Origin: Pseudovirgaria hyperparasitica | Lineage: Eukaryota | Assembly: GCA_010093815.1 (NCBI GenBank) | Contig: ML996570.1 | Strand: one strand, 5' to 3' | Length of the DNA stretch: 64,000 nucleotides | Shown: positions 26,921-43,950 of the stretch, one piece after another | Layout of the letters: every line of letters starts with the position of its first letter | How positions within the stretch are numbered: position 1 is the stretch's first letter | Made by a program: the position numbers and the translations under genes | Notes under the pieces: model-generated | What the model was told of the DNA's origin: nothing | The model's database searches: none | The model's input: only the letters and a program-made list of their open reading frames with translations

Positions 26921-28736
26921 TCACTCGTCCTCCACTCGGAGCACGTAGCTTCCAAACTCCCTCGCCGACACACCCTTCTCGAACAACAGATCAAGCTCCT
27001 CGAACGTCCTCCCACGCGTTTCCGGAATTCGAAAGTACGCCCACGCAAGACAGATTGCTGCCAGCCCGCCAAAGAAGAACCCCAGCTTCCCGCGCAGATT
27101 CGCCTCGTCCGGCGCGATCATAAACGGTATTGCAACCGTCATGGCTATTCCAAGAACGGCCTGAACAGCCGTCGCCACAGCAATAGTCTTCGCTCGCACC
27201 TTCGTCGCGGAGCATTCGCAGATAATCACGAAACAGATCGGCCCGACGCTGATGCCGTAGAAGAAATTCCACACGAGCATTAGCGCAGATTGTGCCCAGA
27301 TGATACCCGTGTTCGTTTCGCGGCTCGGCACGCAATCGAGGACGCCGATGATAAGCTGAATGATGGCGAGCATGGCCAGTCCGGAATTGTAGATAGTACG
27401 CCGGCCAACGCGTACCATCAGCGCGAACGAGATGAGCGTACCGATAAAGCCAACACCCAGGAAGCCGATAGACATATCGAAGGCCTTGTCTGTTGACAGG
27501 CCAGCCTGTACGAAGAAGTACGTGCCATAGTTGATGAGGTAGATGCCACTTAGCACCTGTGTCGCATATACGCCGATAGATATCTCAGTACGGCGCAAGT
27601 TGATGCGCCGGAAACAGTCCCAGTATGTGCTTCCCGCCTCCATCTCCTGCTCCAGTCGATCCGTTTCAATGATCATAGCGAGTGTGTTTTTAACGTTCAC
27701 GCGCGGCGAGGCGAGACGGCGAAGGGATTTCTCAGCTTCTTCGAATCGTTCCTGGCGCGCAAGCCACCAGGGCGATTCCGGCGCAAAGGGTATTCCAGGC
27801 AGGATGATTGCAATCCAAACCCATTGCAGGGCAAAAGGGATGCTATATGCCCAATGGCTGTCCAGCTTGCTAGTTCCTGCGGCGACTCCGTTCGCGATGA
27901 GTTGTCCGATAACGAAGCATAGGTTGATATAGCTCGTCAGTTGGCCTCGAATGGCTACGGGACAGACTTCCGAGGCATAGGCTGGAGCAATGACGACGTA
28001 TGCTCCCAGAATGAGACCTCCTAGAAGCTCCCCCACGAGAAGGACAGGCAATGAGCGAGCGAAGAATTGGATGAAGACGCAGCCACATGTACCCATGACA
28101 CATACCGCAAAGGTTTTGCGGCGACCATACCATTCCATAGGGTACGCCGAAAAGAGAGCGCCGACGCATTGGCCGATAGGATTGCCCATAGAAAGACCCG
28201 ATTGCCAAGGTGCAGAAATGATATACTTATAACCACATCAGCGAGTGTGCATCTCACAATGAAAGTAGTCCTTCCTACAATGCATATGCGGACAGAGTAC
28301 TTACCTCGCCCTTGAATTCATATCCAAAGTCCCGCTGAAACGCTGGGACAGCGTACAGGTTTCCAAGCAGCTGCGGATCAAACGCAAGCATAATAACCCC
28401 TAGCGAGAAAAAGACCGACCAGCCGATTGCTTTTGGATACAGCTTCACAGCCTCGACAAAGCCCATTTGGTGCTCAGCATCGAGCGCATCCCGGACGTTA
28501 TCATCCTTCATGAGACCTTGCGGAGTGTATGCCTCCTCCACAACAGCTCCATGATGCTGTTCAACGTCCTTCGCGCCCATGATACCGTTCAAGGAGTCCA
28601 CGCTCTCCGTCTCGTTTTCGTCGTCACCTTCCTGGTCTGCGTTAGATTGTAGAAGCGGTTGCGTTTGTTCTTGCTCTGGGGCACAGCGGTCAGATATAGT
28701 TTGTCGAGAGAATGGAACCCCCCTCATGGCCGGCAT
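26921..28736 (-). CDS. MFS sugar porter, maltose/alpha-glucoside permease-like, 2 exons, up to 578 aa
   Basis: Motifs 'YASEVCP', 'PESPWWL', 'RRTEI' and 'PETRGRTFEELDLLFE' with about 12 hydrophobic segments. Intron 28226-28304. An alternative start at 28580 is possible. Confidence 0.9.
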
Positions 28737-31700
28737 GTAAGGGTAGTATCATAACGTCTCTTCTATGGGTCCCTTGTTGATCTGGTTATCTCTCGGGATG
28801 CCTATCGCATCGTCGGTTGACGTCGCGGAAGAGCCGCCCAACTGGCCGAGACCAAGCCAGCAACGGCAAGTGGATCGCTAGATAGGGCTAGCCCGATAGG
28901 GGTGTAATGGACTAAGTCCGTCCAGTCATGTGTTTTGCCTTTGTTTATCACGGCCTCACAACTAAAATATACACACCAACATCCTGTTTTTACCTGCAAT
29001 CAAAGTCCTACACTCATAACAGGGACGTGAAGTGATTCGCCCAAATATGAATATTTTCTATTCAGGCGCTCATAGCATGTTGCGTCAGCCAATGCTGACG
29101 GCATGCCAGGCTCACCAGATCAAGAAGCAAGCATATACCTACTCTGTTATTCCTGTTGGCATAGACTGCAATTCACTGCGAGCTTGTTTCACGCGTGCAA
29201 AAGTCATTGGAAGATGAATATGTAGGGACACCTCAATTTGATATCATCGCGCTAAAGAAAGTAGTCGCGTTGGAGGCGTGATGAGCATTAGTGGAACATA
29301 GGTTGTTACCTTCAAACTGGAGTTGAGCTACCCTCGGTTTCACTGACTATGTGGAATTTTCTTCTTCTCCTCGCGGAGGTTTGGTGATACTTCCTGGATA
29401 GATGCATTGCTATATTGTGCAGCCAGTGTAGAGGTTGGGGGCTCTATGTTCTTCGTGCCGGCTGATGCCACTATAATTGATTGATGGGAGATAGCCGTAC
29501 TGTATCTAACAAGTGCGAGTTATGCTGTGGTGCACAGTTAACAGTATCGGTGGCTGGCATTCGAGAGCTGATAGCGCTAAGCGCACGAAGGATCGAGTAG
29601 TTCAGTTGTCGGATTGCAATGATTGCAGGAGAGAGTCCAGATAAACATGCGTCACAAAGAATGTCGTACTGACGAACTCCTCTCCACCACAGACTCTTTG
29701 TCGTATCTTCATCGGAAGTTATAGGAATTCTCCATAGAACGTGACTATAACTACTTAGCTAGACCAGAGCCACAACTTCTATCGAAATGTAAGCTGGGCC
29801 CAAATCATCGGCGTTACATGCTCCAGTAAGCAGGCGCAATGCCAGGTTGAAAGCGTCGACGGAACGATCTTCTCGGCCAACGAGACACATGTGCACCATC
29901 AACCCAAGATCGCGCAGAGACACGGCCGGAAAGACTCTGTCTGCGGTCACCTCGAATTTATAACGCAGTGCAGAAATGCAACGGAATGGGAATCAAGGCA
30001 ACCTCGCACTTCAACCACCTCGGTGTGCCTCCGTCACCTAGGAAGGAACCACAGTCGGATCTACGACATTCAAGGCGTAAGCCTCCCTCTGCATCGGAGG
30101 GGTAGCGGCTTGCTATCGGTGCCACGGGCTGTGATTGGACCTTGTTAAGGTCATGGTGATACGAAGATGTTGCTCAGCACGAGATCTCTCCTGTGATCTG
30201 GCAAATGCTACCAGAAAGGTCGTCGCGACTTACAGATGCAGGATACAAAGCATCATGTGCTGTCTACGGACGTGGAAGACACCTGTGGTATGTTCTCGAC
30301 CTGACCCGAAGACGTTACGGGAAACACGAATGGGGGACGTGGGCCTATCGTGGTACAGCACACGCAATCGCTCCTCTCTAACGTCGGAGACGGAACTTGG
30401 GCATGGAGGCCGTGCTGGGTATGTCTACGATCTAGATGTAAGTAATTTGTAGTGCAGAGTCGATGCAGGTGGGACAAAGTCTCGCATATTATGCACAGGA
30501 CCAGAAATGAACGCGTTGTCTGTGTCTTTGCCAGGTCAACGCGTCGTCCAGTAGCCTTAGCTCATGCAGTTGTTGAGGACATGAATTGAGCAATTGTGGA
30601 AACCGAAGAGGTCACATTGAATCGTGAAACCACGTTCAATGTTATATGCGATTGACCGTAGGCCATAATTCTGGTGGACCTGGTTTTCGAAAATCTCAGG
30701 TGATAGCTGCGAATGTGGAGTTTCGTGTCCCTGGATAGAAATATGAGCTCAATAACAGATCCAAGACACGATCTACAACTGGCCTAATCTGCCGAATGCA
30801 GGCTCGAGTACGACTAGACATGAAAAGTATAACAGAGGCATAGAAAAATTGCGGTCTGTATCTCTATTTTCTCCCGCGTGCTACAGGCGTCGCGAACAAG
30901 GTCATGCAGTTGTGAGTCGAAAGGGCGGTGGACCGAAAGAGGTGAGATGAAGTGACGCCAATGGAACGATACTACCAGAGCGAGACGAGGACTAATTTGT
31001 GAATAGGGAGGTGTCATACATAGAACTGTTCATTAAGTTCCTCAGTATTACAATACCATGGAGAGTAGATCTGGCGGGCATATGCAAGCGATGCCGCCTA
31101 TTTCTGGAGACCTGTTGTGATAGATTATCATAGGGATAATAAATATCAGAACGAGAACTTTTTTCAGAGGAAACCGAACTGTCGTTATTGAATTGCCGAA
31201 TGGCTATGCAATCAGGTATTGCTCGGAGAAAGGGCACCTCGCTCACCAATGTGAGATCGACCAGGAAGACAATGGAGGCATTCGGTCAACTACGAAATCA
31301 GCGCAAGTATCATAGTGTTCAGGGCTCTTCCGTGCTTTCTACCAGCGTCTCCCTAATCTGCCAGTGCTGGACTTTAGGCTTTTGTGGCGCCCTTAGTCGG
31401 CTACAGGTACCGTTCGGCATCGAGGGAAATACGTGTTGAAGGTCCGCAGTGTTATTGATTTTGCAATCAATGCTGCTACTAAACGTCACGATTTAGATGG
31501 AGTGTTGCTTAAATACACACTCGGTTCCAAGAACAGGACAGCTTTTACAGAATGGTCATCGGGGAGACCAGATACATCCGGTTATTCTTCTGTTCGGTAA
31601 GATATAGAGTATTCGTCCGGAAGCTGAACGGTTGCGATAATTAGTGGTCAACTCGGCAGGACACAACTTGTAACTTGCGAGTCTCATGTGTTACACGTAA

Positions 31701-32537
31701 CTCCAGATCGTCTGCGACGGCAGATTGCTCTGCAGAATGTCTGCCAAGACGCAGGTTTTCTTGCATCAGAGTGGGACGTAGTTCCTGCAACGGACTCGAG
31801 CAAGGAACCACTCGGTCAGCTTTGGACTTGGACCTCTGTAGTAAGAAGGCGATTACGTGTCGTTGCCCCGTTACCAGCAGAAATGAGCTGGTGATGTATC
31901 CATAATATTAGGAGGATGGAGATGTCTCGGTGCGGGGTATTGTCGAGTCTGCGGCAGCATCCATGCAGGCGAGCGAAACATGTGCGAGCGGCCAAGGGAG
32001 GAACAATATGAGGGTTGTATTGTGGCGGTATATGGGCCTGATGAAGTGGAATCGGGATTGTTGGCCGTACGAAAGTGGAGTTGGGTCTCATGCTCCGGCT
32101 AGGAGAGCGAAGTAATGCATGCATGGCGTTGATGAAGCTGTGATTTCCGGGGCTGGATTAACTGACCCTCACTCAACCTCAGCTGCACGGTCGTTGTAGC
32201 TTCTCAGCACGAGATAGCAGGCTGTGTGGTGCTGATGATTCGATAGTCATCATGACTCCGGATCCAGGCATCTGAAGATCAAGTCACACGTCACGATGGG
32301 CGTGAGTGGTGAGAGAAGAAGCGGGAATGGGACATGCCAGGTTGTAATGTAGTGTGTGTGTCTGTGTGGTCCTAAGGTTGGTTGGTGTTGGGTTTGTGTC
32401 TAATTTGGGGCTTGATTGGGGCTTGGCTAATTATTTGCCCGCCAGTACCAGTAATGCCAGGGCCCCAGGGATGGCCTCCCTGCTCCGAAAGAATACTTGT
32501 CTCACCGGACCGGGGAGTAGGGGAGTAGGGGCGGAGG

Positions 32538-32563
32538 ATGAGGAGGAGGAGGAGGAGGAGGAG
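32538..32563. repeat. (GAG)n trinucleotide run in intergenic DNA
   Basis: Directly visible in the sequence. Confidence 0.8.
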
Positions 32564-35500
32564 CAGGTGGAGGTTGCTAGTTTCTCACAATCAATCATTA
32601 GTCGCGGCTGAAAGCGGTCTGGCATTGAGGTCTCGGAAAGATCAACATATGTCGTTAAGACACCGGACTGACTTGTCGTCGGCGCGTGGAGCTTTGACGA
32701 ACAAACATTATGCTCGTGATGGTTGGAGGAGCATTTTCACCTCTGTTCTCGATGCTCGTCTTAGGCAGGCTGGCAGGCAGGCCGGCGCGGACTGTCCCCA
32801 ATCTGGACCTAGCTGATGACTGCATTCAAATCCTCCGATGAAACCATATGCGAGTCGTTAGCTGGATGTTGATTGATGTCTTGGGTTAGACCATACAGAG
32901 ACCGAAGAATGATGGTTGTCGAGATTTTGAGGTGCCGAAAACTGTCCCTTGCAGACCTGCTTCCATGATGTTGTCGGTTACGTCGACGGAGCTGAGTTGG
33001 GCAAGACTTTCCACATACTGCAGTATTTGCCGGCCACACCGAGATTGAGATCGAATCCGTAGGGAACGGGGTTTTGGATTGATGGGCAAGGGAACGTGAA
33101 GGTCAGACGATTGACGCAACTGATGCACAGAGGTACCCGTGGACCTCAGGACGCGGTGTTTGACGAAGCGCCAAGAGGAAACCTTGGAAGCCCTAGGTAT
33201 CGAACTTTTACTATCCGGGCCCCGCCCTGCTGCACCTGTAGAGCCGTCAAATAATAATGTCACCGAAGATGACACCCTATTCAATCCTTGTAAGAATGAT
33301 GTGATACTTTTCACTGCTCAGTGGGAACCGGGGCATAAATTTAGCGTAGCAGCGGCAACGATCACGACGACCACAGGTGACAGCTTCTTTTCAGCTCTGC
33401 GTGAAACCTCGGGATGGCGGCGCGACAAACGTGAAATATGGTAATAATTGTAGCCATTGCACTATCGGACAGGATATCGATGTGAGTGGGCCGCCGGGAT
33501 CTGGAGATGCGAAAAAACGGATGACCACGCCACGGCAAGCGGGATCACGACTAATACTGAGTAGTGGGCAATTACTGGATTATTGACGTACTACAGCGAG
33601 TATTCTATAACACACTCGCAGCATTACTATTCCAGACTCAGATCTTTATCAGACGGTGAGCCACGGCAGACCGTCAATCAACCTTGGGCTGATTGCCAAG
33701 CTTGACGGCCTGGGAGGAAAACGAGAGTCGAGGTCTCCGTAGTCTCGCTCCAGTGTCCTTCCTCTCTGTCGCTGGATCTTTGGATCCTGCATGTCGCTAT
33801 CGCGAAACCTGACCCTCGAGGGATGGAAGATTTAGGCTAGAATTGAATGGCAAAGTCTACCACGGGCGTACGCAGCCAGAACCATGTCTAGGGGCCCGTA
33901 TGACGGACTCGGGCGGGTCTCTGTATTTGGTTAAGACAGGTAACAAGTCATTAACTTTCTGGCCTTTCGCCCTCCTTCCGCTTTGCAGGCGAGGCTCTGG
34001 AACATGAGCGATAAAGCGACGCGGGGAGCTGGGATCGACGGCAACGACGCGTGATGGCTGCACTGGCAAATACAAGCGAAAGTGCAGTACGGCAACGGAC
34101 GGAATCGTGTGAGGAAAAGCATTTTACTGTCAGCATTGCATCTTAGCCACTGCTAGTCCAGTTGCCTGATTCGCGGATGAAGGGAGTGAACTAGTAAGTA
34201 TGTTTATTACCAGCCTCGACGCCCAGCGGACTGGAATGTGAGAATATGAGATGGAGCAGATAATGCATTTGCATATCGATATTGCAACCGGATAGGGCTC
34301 CGTCCGCATTGGCTACACACGGAAGTGGCCAACTACGAATGATCAAATGCCTGTCTTTCATGCCGCGACGAAGGCAACACTCCCAGACGCTTATTCACAC
34401 AGATGACGCCGATATGTCTTTAGTGATCAGGGATACGAGGAGTGAGACTAGAGTGAAGCCCGACGTTAGCGGACGTGCTGTATGTATGAAGTTTGTCACT
34501 TGTGAAAGGGCCAGAAAGAACGATGTGACGATGGCAGGCCCAGGACCGAAAGACCCCACCATCATCCTTCACACACGAACAAGCTGATTTGCCTCGCCAC
34601 ATCCGCACAGAGACAAAGCACGCGCGCACTTTTTGCAATCCTAACGGACCGGATGGACCTGACCTGATATTCTAGCTTGGCTTCGTGGCGGTCGTCGTCG
34701 TGGTTGTGACTATCAATCGAAGACCTATCCGTCACGGTCGGGCGTGGCGGTAATACTAGGTAGACAGCCCTGCCCTGCCCTGGCGGCTGGATGCTAGATA
34801 CAGTGGCAGCAACGAAGTCGCTGTGCTCTGTGCACAGGGCGAGAAGGGCTGTTTGACATTAACAGCAAGCCATTACTAAAGAGGATCCTAGATGCACACT
34901 GCCATGTACGAGCGGCAGCAGTGAGGCGAGGGTGACAGCGACAGCGAGAGCGTGTGAGTAGTTGAGAGCATGAGCATGAGGCATGATGAAGGGGGAAGAC
35001 TGGAGACTGGCCAGGTGTCGCTAGGGGCACCGCGACTCGAGGGCAAACCTGTAACCTGTAACCTGTAACGACCGGGTGGGCTGGAACCTGCTAAGAGAGA
35101 GATGGAGAGAGTGAGTGAACAAGGGCTAGAGGCGCAATCATAGGGAGCAGCACGCAGTAAATAGCCTGTGGCCCCGAGATCAAACCGCCAGCAAAGGTCC
35201 TGACTTCAGACTATAATAACAATTAAGTACATGACCATTCTATACTTCCCCAGCATGCACTAACGACCTAGGCCGGCCAGCCAATCACGGATTGGCCATT
35301 GCGCTGAGCAAGACGATCCTACCACTTCTTGCTTTCATCCCGTTAGTGATCAGCCCGTTGAAGGCATGCCCAAAAGCCAAAAACAAAAAGGCAAACGCGC
35401 TGTCGCCGTAGGGGATCGGAATCTGGCTGCGACAGCAACCTAGAGGCTGTACCTGGGTATGCTGTGTGCCAAGGACAAAAGGATGTGCCCGGTTGGACAG

Positions 35501-37548
35501 CAACACCTAGCCCTCCGTGGATGCTCTTTTCCTTTTGGCGGCATGGTTCCGGTGCGTTGATCACGATGTTTCTTTGGTTCACTCTATCACGTCAGTGTCA
35601 GCATCAAGATGCACTTCCCAGTTGCATCAATCGGCGGTAAGTCTGGCATGAGCAAAACATGATCCACGGCCTCTTTAGTCAGGCCAACACACACGACACA
35701 CCGAGTGTGTAAACGAACGGCGACTGTTCTAGTCGCAAAGTCTCGGATAAGGAACATGGAATGGGAAAAGGTGATACTGGTGCTGCTTTCCGAACCCGCG
35801 CTATGCAGCCTCATGCCTGTCCGTCCTCACAGGCCGCAGGTCTGAGAGAACCGAGCTTTGATAAATGACCAAATGACCGAATGACCCTGTAGACCAGGTG
35901 GTCATTGTAACAGTGTCAGTGACTGAGATGCTGTAAACGTTTCGAACAACGAAGAGAGGCAGACGAGTACAAGCCACGACGGCCAGACCAGCTTGCGCGG
36001 CGCGGCTGATGAAGATGTTGCACCCCAGCTGTGTATGGAGTCTAGGAAATATACGTGGGTAGAGACAATCACTAATATAATTATGGAAAGTGATGATACC
36101 TAGGCTGACGATAGTGTTAACCTACTCTACTAGTAACCAGCCGCGTATATTTTCCAGCAACCGGTGACCAGGGGGGTGGGAGGGTAGAGAAGAGGTCACC
36201 ACCTGAATCAATGCTTAATATTAATAAAAAAAATTGCTCGATGCTCAATCCTCAAGCATGCCCTTCTGAATCTGCGCCTTGGGTAGTTTCTGGACCAGGG
36301 GCTCAGGGGCGTGCGTACGTAGGTACCTAGTAACCTACTACCTATTACCTACCTAGCTGACTTATTACACCTGCAGTCGGTAGTAGGTTGCCTCCAGAAT
36401 GCTCCGTAAGCTGTGTTTGAGCATATCCCTTATCATCCATCCGATTGTCTTTGCATCCTACGATTCATACCGAGTAATACCCGCGAACGGATCACAGCAA
36501 ACCGAGCGGGGATCCACGGTCAACCTTGCAAACGCTAACATACACATAGTAAGTTTGAACCCAAGCAGTGCACATTAGCACACGTACTATGTACTTTGTA
36601 CTTTTGTAATTCCACAACTTCCGTAACCAAACCGCAAAGTACTTGTGTCGGTCCCCACAGAGTGGATACTAAGACTAATTAGGTATTCTGCCTCTGTCCG
36701 CAAGGTCTAGGTTGAGTCTCACAGAGTCGACAGGATGACTCTGCTTCCTCCTCAAGCCAGCAAATTGCATATTATGGAAGCGTGTTGGACGGCACAACAT
36801 GCCTGCGCCATAAAAGCCCGAGTGCTCCTGGGCGGTGATAATATGGCTGGTATTGGCTTTCATTTCGAAGCATATCATCCCGTTTGTCCCATGCATGCAG
36901 TGACTACTGTGGCTGTCTGGCCACAGGCGGTGCTTTCTCCTGTGAATCGTGAACCGTAAACCGTGGACCGTAAATCTTGAATCGTGGAATCGTGAGTCGT
37001 CGAGCAACGGAGGTTAGTCAGTACTCCTTCCAACCACTGGCACGAATACGGCCCAATCCTGTCTATCTATGATTGCCAAGTGACCTACCTCTCTGTTGCT
37101 CAACCCTCCACGCACGCGATCCGCCGCCCTTGATGGAGGCGCAGGCGCGAATTTGGTGTAATGATTTCAGCGCTACGGTGCACAGCCAAAATCGACTGGA
37201 GACGTGACTGTGCCTCGATGAGAGTCGACGTGGGCCAGAGACAGACAGCACCAGCATCAGCCAGCCCTGCAAGTCTCCTAACGTCGCTCCCAGGCTCCCC
37301 GTGTGGTTGTTGGTGTTTGTATGGATGAGTGATGATGAGTGGCGTACGGTGTAATAGTTGGAGGGAGTATCTAGATAGCAGACACCTAGTAGCTATGTAG
37401 CAGGTACCTCCTCCTTCCATTTCTTAACTTTCCTTGCCTTTTCCTTTCCAAGATCCAGTCCGGGACCCCCCTCCCTCCTCTCGCTCCGTATAGTAGAATG
37501 AATCCATTCCGGTTCATCCATTCCAGTGCAGCAGCAGCAGCAGCACAG

Positions 37549-37854
37549 GTGAGCAAAGTCCTTCATATCCCCGGTCAGTCTAGCACTTTGTACCGGACCC
37601 GGCGCCCGCTCGCTTGCTTGACTTGACGCCAATGCCCCCAATGCCTCCAATGCCTACCCCCGGCGTGGTGGACGCCTAGGTGTGTGTGTTCTGGCTAGCT
37701 AGCTAGGTACGCCTATGTCTGCGCCCTCGCCCTCGCCCACCCGACCACACCCACGCCCAGCAACCAACCCCCCAACCCGCTCGTGCAATCACGACCTCGT
37801 TTGTTGGCGCCGCGTCTATCATCATTCATCAGTGCTTTTCTAACGCTCCATCAG
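37549..37854 (+). other. Putative 5'-UTR intron of the cyclin gene
   Basis: Donor CAG|GTGAGC at 37549 (alternative TAG|GTACGC at 37707), branch point TTCTAAC at about 37838-37844 and acceptor CAG at 37852-37854. A CT-rich TSS-like tract lies upstream at about 37410-37490. Confidence 0.45.
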
Positions 37855-38171
37855 CTTGTGCATAATATCCTGCAACCTGGACTGGGCCTCGCGCGCAGGC
37901 TGTGTGTGTGGTCCACCCCCCTCGCTCCACTCCACCCGTCGGCCTCCACCACAACAACCACCTCCTCCACCACCAACGTCGTCGTCGTCGTTGTCGTTGT
38001 CGTCGCCCTTTACTATTCCCCTCCCCCCCCCTAAAAAATCTTAGACTATTCGGAGCAGGGCACTGTCGGCGGTGCGCGGACCACTATACTCTCCACGCAC
38101 GCACATGTCAGAACGGGCCTGAGCTCATGTGTCTTTGTTCCATGTCTTTTTTCGCATTTGCTCCCAAGAGT

Positions 38172-38172
<1 letters not shown>

Positions 38173-38213
<41 letters not shown>

Positions 38214-38330
38214 CACATACACACCACACACACCCACACCCACACCCACATTCACCCACTCATACACTGACGCACACATGTTGATTTGACACACACACAC
38301 ACTCACACACACACATATCCTCCTGCACAC
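38173..38330. repeat. (CA)n microsatellite with degenerate CACACC extensions
   Basis: Directly visible in the sequence. Confidence 0.95.
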
Positions 38331-38361
38331 TCTCTCCTGTTACTCGCCCTCACTTCACAAT

Positions 38362-38659
38362 ATGTCACGCTATATCCTGGCTAACGCCCTTCCAATTATG
38401 CCTGGAACCTGCCGCGCCTGCGATGACCATTAAACCATGGCCATGGTCCACTCCACTTCATTAATAGTGATGGACGATGCACCTACCGACTCCAAGGATA
38501 CCGTTTTTATCAAAACAGTTACCTCCGCTGCCGCCATGGTCCATTGTCCACGCATACCGAAACGCCTCCTTCCGTCACGCTTCCTGCCTTGATCCATTCC
38601 CGGCCTTTTTTTTAGTTTACTTTCCTTTCATTGTCTTCTCAAACCTATCAACTGCCTAA
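38362..38659 (+). promoter_or_regulatory. Cluster of nested upstream ORFs in the predicted cyclin 5' leader
   Basis: ATG-initiated uORFs 38362-38433, 38423-38464, 38437-38592 (internal GCCGCCATGG at 38536) and 38477-38659. Confidence 0.55.
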
Positions 38660-39078
38660 GCTCCACCTTTCTGTCTTTAACCTCCGTGGTTCGTGTCAGC
38701 GTGTCACCATCCTGTGCCTTCCTACTTCCCATCTACATATCTGCCGGCACCCTCGTCCGTCGACGCCTCCAGACTCCTTGCTTGCCCCAGTCAAGCTTGT
38801 TCCCGTTTGCGGCCAGCTCGGGAATCTCTCCACTGTCCGCCGAAGCATCCATATCTCAACCTACTCGACCGTGGTTGTCATTCCAACCGGTGCAAGAAAT
38901 GTCGTGAAAGGCAGCCGCTACTCTCTCCTCCACCTCCTGCTGCAGAACCAACCACAAACCAAGTCACCATTGCCAAGAGAGCTGTCCTTCCCTATATGAC
39001 TACCGCTCTGGCCTTTCTTCCCACTCACCTCCAACTTACCTCACTTCACAACTGTCCCCCAGCAGCAACTGCCTCTCA

Positions 39079-41048
39079 ATGCTGTCCATGCCTCACGCCG
39101 TGGGCCGAACGCCCTTCGACACTCTCTCCCATCGCTCAAAGCAAGACCAGATCCTTCTACCGCTACCGAAGTCCTCATCCATACCTCCATTCAGCCAATC
39201 CACTGCATACTCAAGACCACCCTTGACAACTGCTCCACCGACACCTCCTACAGACATGAACTTCCACAATACCAGCTTGCTACCTTCATATGCTCCTCCA
39301 AACGCCCACACACATTCTGATGCAAATTGGGGAAATGGAAGAGGCATGGAGGAGGTCATCAGTCAAGCAGGAATGGGTCCAGGGACTTGCAGCTTCCGAC
39401 CCGTACAAGAAGTGTCGAACTCCAGTAGTTCACAGTATGTTGCGTCGGGGAAGAACCATTCACGGAAAAGCTCGAACAATGAAATTGCGCCCTCATTGCA
39501 AATTCCAGATACCATCAAGACTCCACAGTCAGGAATGCCACAGCTTGCTGCAGAAGTAAGTGCGTTGGCTGACTTCAAATCTACATACGCTGACACATAC
39601 TAGATTACCTGCCTGTTCTGGTTCGAAAGCTCTGCGACCCTACAGGAAGTCCTGCATCCAACTTCACCCCGAAAAAGACCTATACCATTGTGCCCGGAGG
39701 CGATGCCAAGCACTGGCTTTAGGAAATGGGTAGCTACAATTCTATCGACCACTCAAGTGACGCCAAACGTTATTCTCTTGGCGTTGATGTTTGTGTATCG
39801 CCTAAAGAAGTCGAATCCCACAGTGAAGGGAAAGCTTGGCAGCGAATATCGTCTTTTGACAGTAGCGCTGATGTTGGGCAATAAGTGTGAGTCTATACAC
39901 CGTTTACTATGACGCTAAGCTGATTATGGCCAGTTCTGGATGATAACACATACACCAACAAGACCTGGGCTGAAGTTTCTGGCATCTCCGTCACTGAAGT
40001 CCATGTCATGGAGGTGGAATTCCTTAGCAATATGCGTTACAGTCTTTTCACCTCCGAAAAGCAGTGGAATGAATGGCACGTGACATTGGGCAAGTTTGGC
40101 ACCTTCTTCGACAGGGCGTCGAGAGTAAACATGGAGCTCGCACAACGTCTAAGCGGGCCATCGACTCCGACCTTGCTTGTTCCTCCAACGCTCCCAACTC
40201 CCCCTACGTCTTCATGTCGTACATCGCCACCATTTGGACACAGCCAATCCCCGAATCACAAACTTCGTAACAATACTCCCTTGTTATACCCACAAACAAG
40301 CTCGACCGCTATCTCGCCCATCGGCCCGCTACCAGAGCAAGATTTCAGGCCTAACGGCCGCAAACGTAGTTACGACGATGCTTCTCAAGCTCCCCCTCCG
40401 AAACGGCTGCAACACCAATATCACCCCACGAACATCATTACCAACCCAGGAAGCACCGCGCAGATGATGCCGACTGTCGCTGCTCCAACTTTGCCACGTC
40501 TTCCTAACCTCTCGATACCACTCGGTCAATCTTTACAGTCATTATCGGTACCACAACTCCCACCGCCAGGCAATCGAGCAATGTCACTTGTCTACCCTCC
40601 CCCGAATCATTGGTCTCAGCCTCAAATGACACCAATGCCCACCACTACTACCAGCGGTCCTGTAGTCTCACAGGTTCCCTCTTCAAGTATGAGTGTGCAC
40701 GAGCAATCACGCCAGCTCAGTCCCTTTCCAGGATCTGCTAATGGCTCACCAAACTCGGTGCATTTCCCAGCAAGCCGTCTCTCTCCATCGTACTACTTGC
40801 AGCAGCGGCAATCACCGTACCGACCTGTTCGACATGTCCACACCCTTTTGCATCCTCCACCGTCCGCATCAATGCACAATCCAAACAGGAGCATGTCAAA
40901 CGATCAGATGCACTATCAGCCTCTCGGCCGTCCGTTGACGGAACGTAGAGCTGGTACCCTCCCATATATGCATCATGAGGCTTGGCCGGTCACTAACCAA
41001 TTCAACCAGTTTCCAGTACTTCCGCAGCCGGACTTTTCGCGGGTTTGA
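39079..41048 (+). CDS. CLG1: Pho85-family cyclin-like protein (Clg1/Pcl type), 3 exons, about 624 aa
   Basis: Cyclin box 'FRKWVATILSTTQVTPNVILLALMFVYRLK...SEYRLLTVALMLGNK|FLDDNTYTNKTWAEVSG...MEVEFL' with a Pro/Ser/Gln-rich tail. Introns 39556-39603 and 39887-39933. The true start is uncertain. Confidence 0.85.
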
Positions 41049-41840
41049 ATTTGAATCACTGTCCGATTGCAACGATTCCCTTGCAGCTATCCGCGGAGTC
41101 CGGGCGCAGTAGCGTCTTTCACTGGATGGATTTATCCGACACAGCGGACTAGCATTTTCTTTTATGGAGTTTCGAAAAATTGCCATGCATTCATAGGAGT
41201 TCTGGAGGATATCGGCTGTCGCGATTATCCCTTCCATTTTTCGGGTTAACGGCGTCTTTCAGACGTTTTATCATCAGCAGGAGCATCTGCATTGGACGGC
41301 GTTTATACATAGCTACAGGCTACATCTTTTTGACTTGCATTGTTACGAAAGGATTTTTTATATATCCCAGGAGTAGCGCAGTGCGCAGCTACTCCACTGG
41401 TTCATCCAGCTCTGTACGATTATGGGGATTCCTTGAGGAGGACAGAAGAACAGTACACAGCGGAAGATGTGCTGAAGCGGTGGAAAGTCTAATAACGCCG
41501 AGAGAGCCGGGACTCTGCTCAAGGCCTATCATACAAGCGAGTATGGACAGTTTTAAACAGCTGAGCCAATAGCCAGCTTTCCCCGATTGGCTTGATCTGA
41601 TGTTCCACACTGCACTTGACGCCTGATCTGAGTGAGCTAAGCCTTTGGCATGAATGTGTGTCATGTGAGTAATGTGTGTACCGGCCATGGAGCTGCGTTG
41701 AGGTAGAGGAGTGACACTTCTTTAACGACTGCTTCCCCATCAGACAGACAGGCAGGCATCACCTAAAAGAGAGAGACAGACAGACATACATATGAAATAA
41801 ATGGATGATTGGGATTCTGGACGTGCTTGCTGGTTGAGAG

Positions 41841-42340
41841 GTGTATATGTGTGTTGTGTGTGTATGTGTATGTGTATGTGTGTGTGCATAAATATAGATG
41901 ACAGGAGGTAATATAGGCTGTGTTTGTTTTGTCGTGTCGTGTCCTGTCTTGTGAATGGATGGATGGATGAATGGATAGATGATAGATGAATATGTGAATG
42001 AATGAATGAATGAATGGTCATAATGCACGTGCAATGCGCTATGCATGCAGCACTTTGGTTGTAAGATGAGTTTACGGGAAAAAGGGTCTTGTCTGGTGGT
42101 GGATATGGATATGGATATGTGTATGTGTATGTGTGTATGTGTGTATGTGTATGTGTATGTTTTATTTGCTCAGCATGGAAATGGAAATGGATGCGTATGA
42201 TGGAAACAAATTTGTGATGGTGAAGCGTGAGTGTGATGATACGATATAGGTGACTGTTAGTTTCGATCATTATTACTATCGATATATCTCATTCTGTGCG
42301 TGGATGGGTGGATGGATGGATGGATGGATGGATGGATGGG
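41841..42340. repeat. Compound microsatellite field: (TG)n/(TGTATG)n, (GAAT)n, (GGAT)n, (GGATAT)n
   Basis: Directly visible downstream of the cyclin gene. Confidence 0.9.
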
Positions 42341-43950
42341 TCGATGGCTAGAATACTCACTCACGCGTTCGCTCGTGTATATCGCTCGCTCCTCTATAGA
42401 GAGAGGAGAGGGGGGGGGAGGGGGAGAGTTTATAATGGAATTACTTTTGCCTTGCTAATACGTACTATAGAGACACACGGGATGATGATAGTATGCTCTC
42501 TTTCACTTTCCTGTTTCCGGTTTTATACTTTTCTGCTGTAGTTGTTACGGGTAGATAGATGGGTACGTAAGTAGCTTACGGGTAAGTAGTCAATGATAAA
42601 GGATAAATGATGAACGATGAATGATGAATAGTAAAGCGGCGAGCTTGTTTCTGGGGGTTTGCGAGAGAGGAGAGGGAGGGAGTGAGGGAAAGAGGGAGGG
42701 GATGTGTGCTATTCCATATAGCTTATCGACATGGAGTTTTAGTAGTAGTTTCTATGATTTCCCTTGTTTTTTGTTGCTAGTTGTGCGAGTGGTGAGGTGG
42801 GGTAATAAATAGCGAGTAAAGACAGACAGAGAAGGAGAACAAGAATATATTTTTTCTCTCTGTAGAGTGAGGAACGTTAAAGGAGGAGGTGCTGAGGGGT
42901 CGCTTGCAAGATGATAGCAGGAATCTGGGGAATGATGTGGGTAGTGTAGTAGTACTAGTGATGCGGTTTATACGATCCGTGGTTCAAGCGTTCCAGTGTT
43001 TTCCGGTGGTGTTCCAGTATGTGCTCTGGCGGGATTTGGCGGGCGGGGGAGTGGGAGGATGTTATTATGGTATGGGTACGGTATGTGTGGGCATGAATGG
43101 TACGGGAGTTAGTGTTTTGGACTTGTGGTTCTCACATAGTTACGTGTTATTGGAAGTTATGGAGAAAGAGACATAACGGGAAGTTTTTTGCTGTCTGCTG
43201 TAGTAGTATATGTAGGTAAAGGTGAGCTCGACGCATTACGAGGCTGAGATAGACGGCAGTAGATGGATAAGATAGACTGATGATAGGAGATTTATTCTCT
43301 GAGTGGTTTACAGACGGGCATGGAGTTTATTGGGATGGAATAGTGTTCGACTAGACGGCACCGTGGAGTTACCGGTGTGTTTTGGCCGGATGGATATGGA
43401 TGAGGTTGGGTGACTGATATGAGCGGAAAGGTACTCGTTTTTGTTATTTCTAGGTGATATACGAAAGCTTGAAGGCAGTTGTGCTCGAGTGGAATGGGAT
43501 GCCCTCGAAGGTAAGTGAGCCTGTCAAGCTGGATGGAATATATAGGCTAGAAGCATCTAGACAACTGGCTGCTGGTAGGTAAGTTGGCCCAACAATCATG
43601 TGTGTCCTCTCCAGCGAAGCTTGCAGAGTTGGGCTTGGTTTGGTGCTGCTCGAATGCATAGTAGAGTAAGTCGTGAGCACTGAACAGTTGTGCTTCATGC
43701 CTTTATTGTAGCAGGAACATTCATCTAAAACTGTGCCGTTTACAGGTGGCACCCGGAGAGCTGATCTAGTAGGATGTGGGAAGTACTGGAAGACCAAGTG
43801 CTGCATACCAACAAACCATCGACCGAAGCACAAGTAAGAGGGTAAGTCACGCCATCAAAATCCAAGGTATGTAGGATCGTCTTGCACCATAACAGAACAA
43901 AACACCAGAAGCGCCGATTCTTCTCAAGACTCTTTGCATTCCATGCCAGC

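Follow-up and report, generated by a model that had tools for sequence, protein, structure and literature searches.

The regulatory inputs of Clg1 are treated as an open question in the discussion of PMC6880881, as far as the accessible part of that paper goes. A Clg1-like cyclin gene in the 64-kb stretch of Pseudovirgaria hyperparasitica DNA analysed here (the window) raises the question of whether its AUG-rich leader controls how the cyclin is translated. The gene lies on the plus strand at 39079–41048 (exons 39079–39555, 39604–39886 and 39934–41048), and its 624-residue product is identical to one named P. hyperparasitica protein. The PF08613 domain of this product scores 51.7 bits against a curated cut-off of 21, which places it among the Pho85-type (group II) cyclins. 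Seven PF08613 genes are visible in the same genome, and the nearest paralogue is L086 (37%, E 2e-19). Judged by sequence, the two would fit the pair of clg1-like genes that aspergilli carry according to the accessible text of PMC6078057, and the gene described here could be the counterpart of either ClgA or AN4984. An atlas search confirmed a cyclin and added nothing beyond that, and a PDB sequence search returned one weak, unrelated match. A literature search, mostly of journals outside subscription, turned up no paper dealing with uORFs or the choice of start codon in such a cyclin; bioRxiv supplements and the gene tables of ribosome-profiling papers, which lay outside it, could list the orthologue.

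Leaders were compared in a non-redundant set of 33, made up of the window and 32 orthologue loci that span at least four named classes (22 Dothideomycetes, 11 from outside); these loci share ancestry, and the counts below are not counts of independent samples. A preliminary description of the locus had listed at least nine uORFs in an elaborate leader as a candidate control system. All nine that it listed were located at exactly the same coordinates, and further AUGs absent from that list lie at 37498 (upstream of a candidate splice donor, with a purine at −3) and, inside the listed uORFs, at 38142, 38398, 38443 and 38470. Compared with 1000 dinucleotide shuffles of 37855–39078, neither the number of ATGs (14 against 12.5 expected, P = 0.35) nor that of uORFs (9 against 8.6, P = 0.52) departs from chance. 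A tblastx search against 80 loci gave no match below E 0.02 and none that was collinear, and the frames and lengths differ among relatives; a conserved-peptide uORF of the arg-2/CPA1 type was therefore rejected. At 38105–38289, three uORFs overlie or flank a CA repeat; they have no match in relatives and are probably species-specific and incidental. For the whole of 33000–38350, no homology to relatives was found by blastn, by shared 10-mers or with a profile of nine Pleosporales upstream regions. With their number at chance, one group lacking counterparts and their peptides unconserved, nothing marks the nine uORFs out as a set.

Further downstream, nucleotide sequence is conserved. The uORF at 38362–38433 contains block C (38396–38421), conserved as nucleotides and not as peptide, which is read in different frames among Pleosporales. 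Blocks I and J (38733–38789) are the top match in the entire 64-kb window to a profile of 12 Pleosporales leaders only, and the block J 10-mer occurs in 9 of 21 long leaders. Conservation whatever the frame, like the chance number of uORFs and their unconserved peptides, would be expected if the uORFs were incidental and the conservation reflected RNA-binding or DNA motifs plus protein constraint, with no translational role; a three-codon uORF nearer the start, considered below, also has 3′ bases that are better conserved in Pleosporales than its AUG. Another reading takes a conserved RNA hairpin to be the main regulator, since blocks A and B are predicted to form a stem of 11 pairs in 10 Pleosporales rows and PMC7270185, in its accessible part, refers to a conserved fold in the CLG1 mRNA of yeast. 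We regard the hairpin as very improbable: the pairs are invariant among Pleosporales with zero compensatory changes, neither the window nor loci with an inverted block A form the stem, and sliding leader windows fold below z −2 in only 1 of 22. Rfam gave no matches in 10 loci or in positions 28500–43500 of the window.

The 51-codon uORF at 38437–38592 differs from the other distal uORFs in its start contexts. The optimal Kozak contexts that had been reported at 38437 and 38536 are present, and four optimal RnnATGG sites occur in 37855–39078 against 0.8 expected (P = 0.001), all within this uORF (38437, 38443, 38470 and 38536), a statistic that was picked only after those contexts had been singled out. 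In alignment, a strong uAUG of Pleosporales falls on the AUG at 38437, and GCCATG is found in 14/27 leaders overall; outside Pleosporales its frequency is not significant (6/18 against 3.0 expected), and a strong uAUG was rejected as a conserved element there. Since four optimal AUGs sit in one uORF, little downstream initiation would be expected on an RNA that carries it. This argues for two promoters, with the blocks at about −700 to −450 acting as promoter DNA, a productive short transcript starting at 38600–38750, the upstream uORFs as passengers, and a long transcript from about 37450 that is untranslated, repressive or nonexistent. An octamer that we take to be CRE-like is present at −760 to −400 in 10/27 leaders against 5 copies per 94 kb further upstream, in either orientation, as expected for a DNA element, and in Pleosporales, as in loci of the Mycosphaerellales type, a C-rich skew sets in at about −600. 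However, the octamer is absent from the window, where the skew begins at −1600 beside the start of a divergent RNA; at several other loci the skew runs from −1200 or beyond, and the spliced cDNA L006 extends to at least −351 in genomic terms. We give two promoters a substantial chance, if a little short of even. Such an arrangement is compatible with a leaky-scanning account of the elements nearest the start codon.

The divergent RNA is a spliced, probably non-coding transcript on the minus strand that spans 35500–37380 and extends further left, represented by contigs of RNA runs X1 and X2 (one sample). The contigs skip a GT..AG intron at 36669–36722, the longest ORF after splicing is 116 aa, and the 5′ end lies at 37380 or beyond. 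None of the RNA contigs returned lies over 37400–41500, a gap that by itself proves nothing about the cyclin transcript. Together with the C-rich skew, which starts at about 37480, this 5′ end leads us to infer a transcription start for the long leader in 37400–37500, in what would be a promoter shared by both RNAs. The word share of the RNA runs is 0.77–0.78, where a start at 37450 with the intron would give 0.83 and a start at 38350 would give 0.72; lying between the two, it is unusable for choosing. A UTR intron at 37549–37854 had been proposed, and its signals are where they were described (donor 37549, branch 37840, acceptor 37854). Since equally strict signals occur three times in 17 kb of adjacent non-coding DNA on both strands, about 0.3 chance introns are expected in a leader of this length, and the intron stays a candidate. 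If it were spliced, the first uAUG (37498–37548, purine at −3) would open a 76-codon uORF. A second candidate acceptor at 38677–38699 has a branch-like site downstream of its pyrimidine tract, and use of 38699 would splice out every uORF from 38105 to 38659. The uORFs from 37498 to 38659 would matter only if the long transcript predominates, in which case 38437–38592 would be strongly repressive.

The search for conserved leader elements proposed earlier gave a divided answer: no uORF peptide is conserved, but the position of a proximal uAUG is kept. In the window this AUG opens an out-of-frame uORF at 38996–39226 that overlaps the cyclin start and has T at −3. A uAUG lies at −130 to −31 in 31/33 leaders, all except L044 and L068, against 19.6 expected. 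ATG ranks first of the 64 triplets in this interval, even when each triplet is allowed its best 100-nt window; outside Pleosporales it leads by only a narrow margin (z 3.01; TTG 2.98) and is second without the window. The end of the uORF varies, lying upstream of AUG1 in 15 leaders, at AUG1 in five and further into the overlap in 11, and two spliced cDNA-like contigs (L006 and L025) include the uAUG. A cpc-1-like in-frame upstream extension was rejected, since the stop at 38905 closes it.

That stop belongs to a minimal uORF, M-S-stop, at 38899–38907, with G at −3. An M-x-stop uORF at −220 to −50 is present in 9/33 leaders against 1.25 expected; all nine are among the 22 Dothideomycetes (0.66 expected), and eight of them have a purine at −3. 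In the window this strong three-codon uORF precedes the overlapping out-of-frame uORF by 88 nt, which is the ATF4 layout given in the accessible part of PMC5972666, and would suggest delayed reinitiation of the ATF4/cpc-1 type: 38899 would promote reinitiation, 38996 would inhibit it, and the cyclin would be induced through eIF2-alpha phosphorylation. Regulation of the paralogue PCL5 by uORFs in a stress response, reported in the accessible part of bioRxiv 10.1101/2023.05.11.540079, points the same way. Delayed reinitiation calls for a first uORF of 3–6 codons in good context, such as the one seen in the window; against this, 24/33 leaders, including all 11 outside Dothideomycetes, have no minimal uORF, and at several loci the spacing between the two uORFs is only 7–60 nt. 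It also calls for an efficiently recognised inhibitory uAUG, and only 3/31 proximal uAUGs carry a purine at −3; this uAUG is weak, as is the main AUG, in contrast to cpc-1 with its two optimal uAUGs (PMC5487733, accessible part). We consider delayed reinitiation unlikely as the main mechanism. It is compatible with leaky scanning, as one possible input.

The weakness of the cyclin starts is itself conserved. AUG1 (39079) and AUG2 (39088), at 39079–39090, have a pyrimidine at −3, as had been claimed. Across the leaders a purine precedes AUG1 at −3 in 0/33 (21 C, 12 T), so the base varies though never to a purine, and precedes AUG2 in 0/25, where a Pro/Ser codon supplies the base. Each of the other positions from −12 to −1 of AUG1 has 6–16 purines in 33. 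As a crude background, 43/67 other long ORFs have a purine at −3, and three paralogous cyclins of the same genome have G. AUG1 opens a 59-residue N-terminal extension (39079–39255) that contains Thr-Pro-Pro at 39241–39249 and is free of out-of-frame AUGs as far as AUG3 (39256–39258), which lies five residues past the Thr and is the earliest in-frame AUG to have a purine at −3. This corridor had gone unremarked in the preliminary description. A strong in-frame AUG is present in exon 1 at 31/33 loci, with none at the other two, and in the stretch from AUG1 to the first such AUG these 31 loci hold six out-of-frame ATGs, against 24 expected from synonymous resampling or 21 from codon shuffling; 0/500 replicates were as low. 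The depletion is seen in Pleosporales (1 against 6.5 expected) and in the others (5 against 18), and all six remaining ATGs have a pyrimidine at −3. Control ORFs, a rough background because internal exons are included, show no depletion (62 against 60; 37 against 30). It can be seen that the cyclin combines two sequence features expected of a leaky-scanning isoform pair, a weak first AUG and, across a stretch cleared of out-of-frame AUGs, a strong in-frame one.

Incidental uORFs would leave unexplained a purine-free −3 position unique among 12, the depletion of corridor AUGs and the retention of the uAUG amid varying flanks, and we hold that reading to be improbable. At the level of sequence comparison, the leaders demonstrate conservation of the uAUG position, the weak contexts and the AUG-free corridor. 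Translational control of the cyclin, as first proposed, is supported by this cross-species conservation; what carries it is the proximal elements (uAUG 38996, minimal uORF 38899, weak AUG1/AUG2 and the corridor to 39256) and not the set of nine.

The corridor also lies over a conserved protein feature. TP[P/S] is present in 32/33 leaders; among the 22 non-Pleosporales, the residue at +4 is Asp/Glu in 16 and Thr in three. In phosphodegrons of the Cdc4 type an acidic residue may replace the second phosphosite. Across 32 leaders the Thr-Pro-Pro codons differ by synonymous changes, and 10 Pleosporales hardly vary over the first 13 residues; from codon comparison, the extension is shown to be under selection at the protein level. 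Since the doubly phosphorylated Cdc4-type degron is (S/T)-P-X2-4-(S/T) (PMC7340321, accessible part), we infer that the Thr-Pro-Pro site may be a phosphodegron. The Met that follows it has a purine at −3 in 22/22; the G at −3 of AUG3 comes from the Asp/Glu codon and may be retained for the protein. The strong AUG follows Thr-Pro-Pro in 20/31 loci and precedes it in 11/31 (eight of these Pleosporales), and since two further loci have none, a degron-less isoform is not universal. A near-cognate start in place of AUG3 in Pleosporales was rejected, the codons being mostly CTC/CTT.

We therefore favour, as the probable mechanism, leaky scanning for low, tunable output, with both a full-length cyclin and one 59 residues shorter being made. 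Scanning ribosomes would first encounter the minimal uORF at 38899, and the weak out-of-frame uAUG at 38996 would then draw off a part of them. Initiation at the weak in-frame starts 39079 and 39088 would give the full-length cyclin with its Thr-Pro-Pro; ribosomes that bypass both would traverse the cleared corridor and initiate at 39256, giving the shorter form without it. If the leader AUGs are used in vivo in this way, initiation stringency or eIF2 activity could shift total output or the long/short ratio, and the cyclin may be gated by stress or nutrient state, as had been proposed. Across distant moulds and lichen fungi, the conserved layout of short uORF, weak starts and later strong start probably limits cyclin output, and it may yield a shorter, more stable form. 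It is doubtful, though conceivable, that start choice acts as a stability switch throughout filamentous ascomycetes, swapping an unstable long cyclin for a stable short one. Higher stringency or less ternary complex would then lead ribosomes past the weak uAUG and AUG1/AUG2 to start behind Thr-Pro-Pro, with one Asp/Glu codon supplying both the degron residue and the purine of the Kozak context. The half-life of a cyclin would be set by the choice of start codon if the short isoform escapes degradation, and the switch, if real, would link the state of translation directly to the choice of Pho85 substrates. Four single-base handles (the proximal uAUG, the minimal uORF, the −3 base of AUG1, and AUG3) make the question of Clg1 inputs testable in Neurospora or Aspergillus. 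The layout also bears on annotation of the N-termini of such proteins, several database models of the orthologues starting at the Met after the Thr-Pro-Pro site.

Parts of this layout recall known systems. In arg-2/CPA1, a uORF encoding an attenuator peptide lies ahead of a fungal gene; the cyclin leader likewise has uORFs ahead of a fungal gene, but without a conserved uORF peptide. The S. cerevisiae PCL5 leader also has repressive AUG uORFs ahead of a Pho85 cyclin (Pcl1,2 subfamily), though of a different paralogue and with a poly(A) tract that the window leader lacks, and the accessible part of bioRxiv 10.1101/2023.05.11.540079 does not describe conserved weak main AUGs with an internal strong AUG. 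N. crassa cpc-1, yeast GCN4 and mammalian ATF4 share the long leader in which a three-codon uORF is followed by a longer one, which in ATF4 overlaps the main ORF as in the window (PMC5487733 and PMC5972666, accessible parts); here, in contrast, weak contexts surround the second uAUG and the main AUG, the short uORF is confined to part of the Dothideomycetes, and many AUGs may lie ahead of it. Neurospora commonly shows leaky scanning and N-terminal isoforms, and weak/strong AUG pairs in Cryptococcus and Neurospora give two isoforms from a leaky AUG and a later strong in-frame one (PMC7049704, accessible part); those extensions are mostly mitochondrial targeting signals, whereas that of the cyclin is Pro/Ser-rich with a CDK-type site. 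In C/EBP alpha/beta, a first start in poor context is combined with a short out-of-frame ORF and with in-frame AUGs further on that give N-terminally shorter isoforms (PMC5487733, accessible part), an arrangement that here belongs to a fungal cyclin and not a bZIP protein, with the out-of-frame uAUG preceding AUG1 and a candidate degron as the segment that would be lost.

The cyclin reading frame that opens at 39079 on the plus strand is interrupted by introns at 39556-39603 and 39887-39933 and encodes a product of 624 amino acids. Exon 2 is a 100% match to a Pseudovirgaria hyperparasitica database protein of the same length, and the product scores over the PF08613 cut-off. The genome holds seven PF08613 genes, and the closest paralogue of the cyclin is L086 (37% across the cyclin box). 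This agrees with the cyclin set of the aspergilli, which, according to PMC6078057, comprises seven group II cyclins, two of them clg1-like; it is from this fit that we infer the label Clg1-like. The Dothideomycete orthologues begin ML(ELQLPxP)MPHA, which shows that the start at 39079 (AUG1) or 39088 (AUG2) is correct. In L086 (G000:C3), the second Clg1-like paralogue, an out-of-frame uAUG in weak context at -68 opens 64 codons overlapping the start; the protein also carries a Thr-Pro-Pro (TPP) motif near its N-terminus, but its first AUG is strong.

The preliminary description had placed nine uORFs in the cyclin leader, and all are present with the contexts assigned to them. Their number is nothing unusual, however: in 37855-39078 there are nine uORFs against 8.6 in shuffles, and 14 ATGs against 12.5. 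The one uORF or AUG statistic above chance is the presence of four optimal AUGs, all within the uORF at 38437-38592 (0.8 expected, P=0.001), a statistic picked post hoc. The proposed UTR intron at 37549-37854 has good signals, yet about 0.3 such sets arise by chance per leader length, and use of a second candidate acceptor at 38699 would eliminate all uORFs from 38105 to 38659. Aligned with that acceptor is the 3' end of a 65-nt GT..AG stretch that is present in a genomic relative (L008:5287-5351) and absent from a spliced contig (L006, at 20-21), representing either a deletion in the strain or a leader intron with a weak donor. Simple repeats, among them long CA-type ones, occupy 38165-38322 of the leader, and likewise 41800-42350 downstream of the gene.

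Contigs from two runs of one sample cover 35500-37380 but lack 36669-36722, which on the minus strand is a GT..AG intron, and thus represent a spliced RNA, with no long ORF, heading left from about 37380. This divergent RNA is placed at 33500-37380 (minus strand) and has no ORF of more than 116 aa; one of its contigs, 3725 nt in length, continues past the examined stretch. Some 10 kb around it (28750-39079) are poor in genes, and most orthologue loci are likewise without obvious genes over 4-6 kb upstream. A C-rich skew on the plus strand sets in near 37480; its onset is close to -600 in Pleosporales and Mycosphaerellales-type loci, whereas several other loci show it from -1200 or beyond. The start of the divergent RNA and the skew onset are both consistent with the long leader that had been suggested, read from a shared promoter.

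Orthologues were drawn from one scan of metagenome contigs, which gave 80 loci. The anchored set is the window and 43 of these, near-duplicates and loci with little upstream DNA being omitted, and the 42 leaders with more than 300 nt upstream form 33 clusters. A quick tree with named proteins groups the loci with Pleosporales (10), Venturiales, Dothideales, Mycosphaerellales, Leotiomycetes, Lecanoromycetes and Pezizomycetes, and in unplaced clades. Two loci (L031, L066) have ATA instead of AUG1, and this position was their anchor in the uAUG test.

Pleosporales have collinear nucleotide blocks in common over about -700 to -1. When the 64-kb window is searched with a profile built from 12 Pleosporales alone, the two best matches fall at 38733-38789 and 38396-38421 with strand and order correct, each being weak (E 0.12 and 0.14); upstream of about 38360 no matches were found in relatives. 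The reading frame of the blocks differs between species, so they encode no conserved peptide. Block A, which resembles a CRE-type DNA site, occurs in either orientation in 10/27 leaders at -760 to -400 (elsewhere 5 per 94 kb) and is absent from the window; a stem between blocks A and B showed no covariation, and a leader hairpin has no support from these loci. The most over-represented 6-mer at -700 to -300 is GATCAG (14/27 leaders, 1.5 expected), degenerate in the window. Farther upstream, Pleosporales have conserved non-coding blocks (L002:3780-4050; -1500 to -2300 in L007, L009, L010, L012, L018, L019 and L024) that are 60-160 nt long and 75-83% identical; their plus strand is rich in G, the four of these loci that were scanned gave no Rfam match, and the window has no counterpart.

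Conservation is centred on the cyclin start, beside it and within it. In 31/33 leaders, against 19.6 expected, a uAUG is found 31-130 nt ahead of AUG1, and ATG ranks first among the 64 triplets at this position even when each is given its best window, the lead being marginal outside Pleosporales. Spliced contigs (L006, L025) place this proximal uAUG within the mature mRNA. Its context is weak (-3 purine in 3/31) and its uORF end variable; the window's uORF spans 38996-39226, out of frame. The proximal uORF stop overlaps AUG1 as ATGA in L034, L043 and L080, and L066 (794-847), despite its ATA, retains the stop there as TAA. Ahead of the proximal uAUG, 9/22 Dothideomycetes carry a minimal M-x-stop uORF (0.66 expected; 38899-38907 in the window), among them three lineages outside Pleosporales; the remaining 11 leaders have none.

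For AUG1 itself the -3 base is C or T in 33/33 leaders, compared with 6-16 purines at each of the other positions from -12 to -1, and AUG2 has a -3 purine in 0/25. The crude background is 43/67, and three paralogues from the window's genome have G at -3. From AUG1 to the first strong in-frame AUG, out-of-frame ATGs number six in 31 loci against 21-24 expected, with no depletion in control ORFs and none in the window's 39079-39255. That strong AUG follows the TPP motif (39241-39249 in the window) in 20/31 loci and precedes it in 11. The motif is conserved despite fully synonymous codon variation, which argues that the N-terminal extension is translated as well. Asp or Glu stands at +4 of TPP in 16/22 non-Pleosporales, and TPP may be a Cdc4 phosphodegron by the consensus given in PMC7340321.

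The simplest reading of this five-part signature, and probably the right one, is damping by the proximal uORF combined with the use of two or three in-frame starts through programmed leaky scanning. In the window these would yield a long form of 624 or 621 aa and a short one of 565 aa that lacks the TPP site. What is conserved is a real layout of translational control, known in kind and narrower than the nine-uORF system first proposed; gating by stress or nutrient state may be its role. The open literature, supplements and subscription papers aside, yielded nothing on the leader of a Clg1-like cyclin or on the start codons there. In Neurospora, leaky scanning is common, and among Pho85 cyclins yeast PCL5 is known to be under uORF control. 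Another paralogue, L088 (G000:C1), which appears Pcl5-like, has uORFs of 33 and 2 codons with a common stop at -291, a pair that recalls yeast PCL5. In the window, the minimal uORF stands 88 nt ahead of the overlapping one, an arrangement that resembles ATF4, whereas a defining feature of cpc-1 is missing, the second uAUG being weak; by this comparison, the leader may work partly like an ATF4/cpc-1 system rather than belong to that class.
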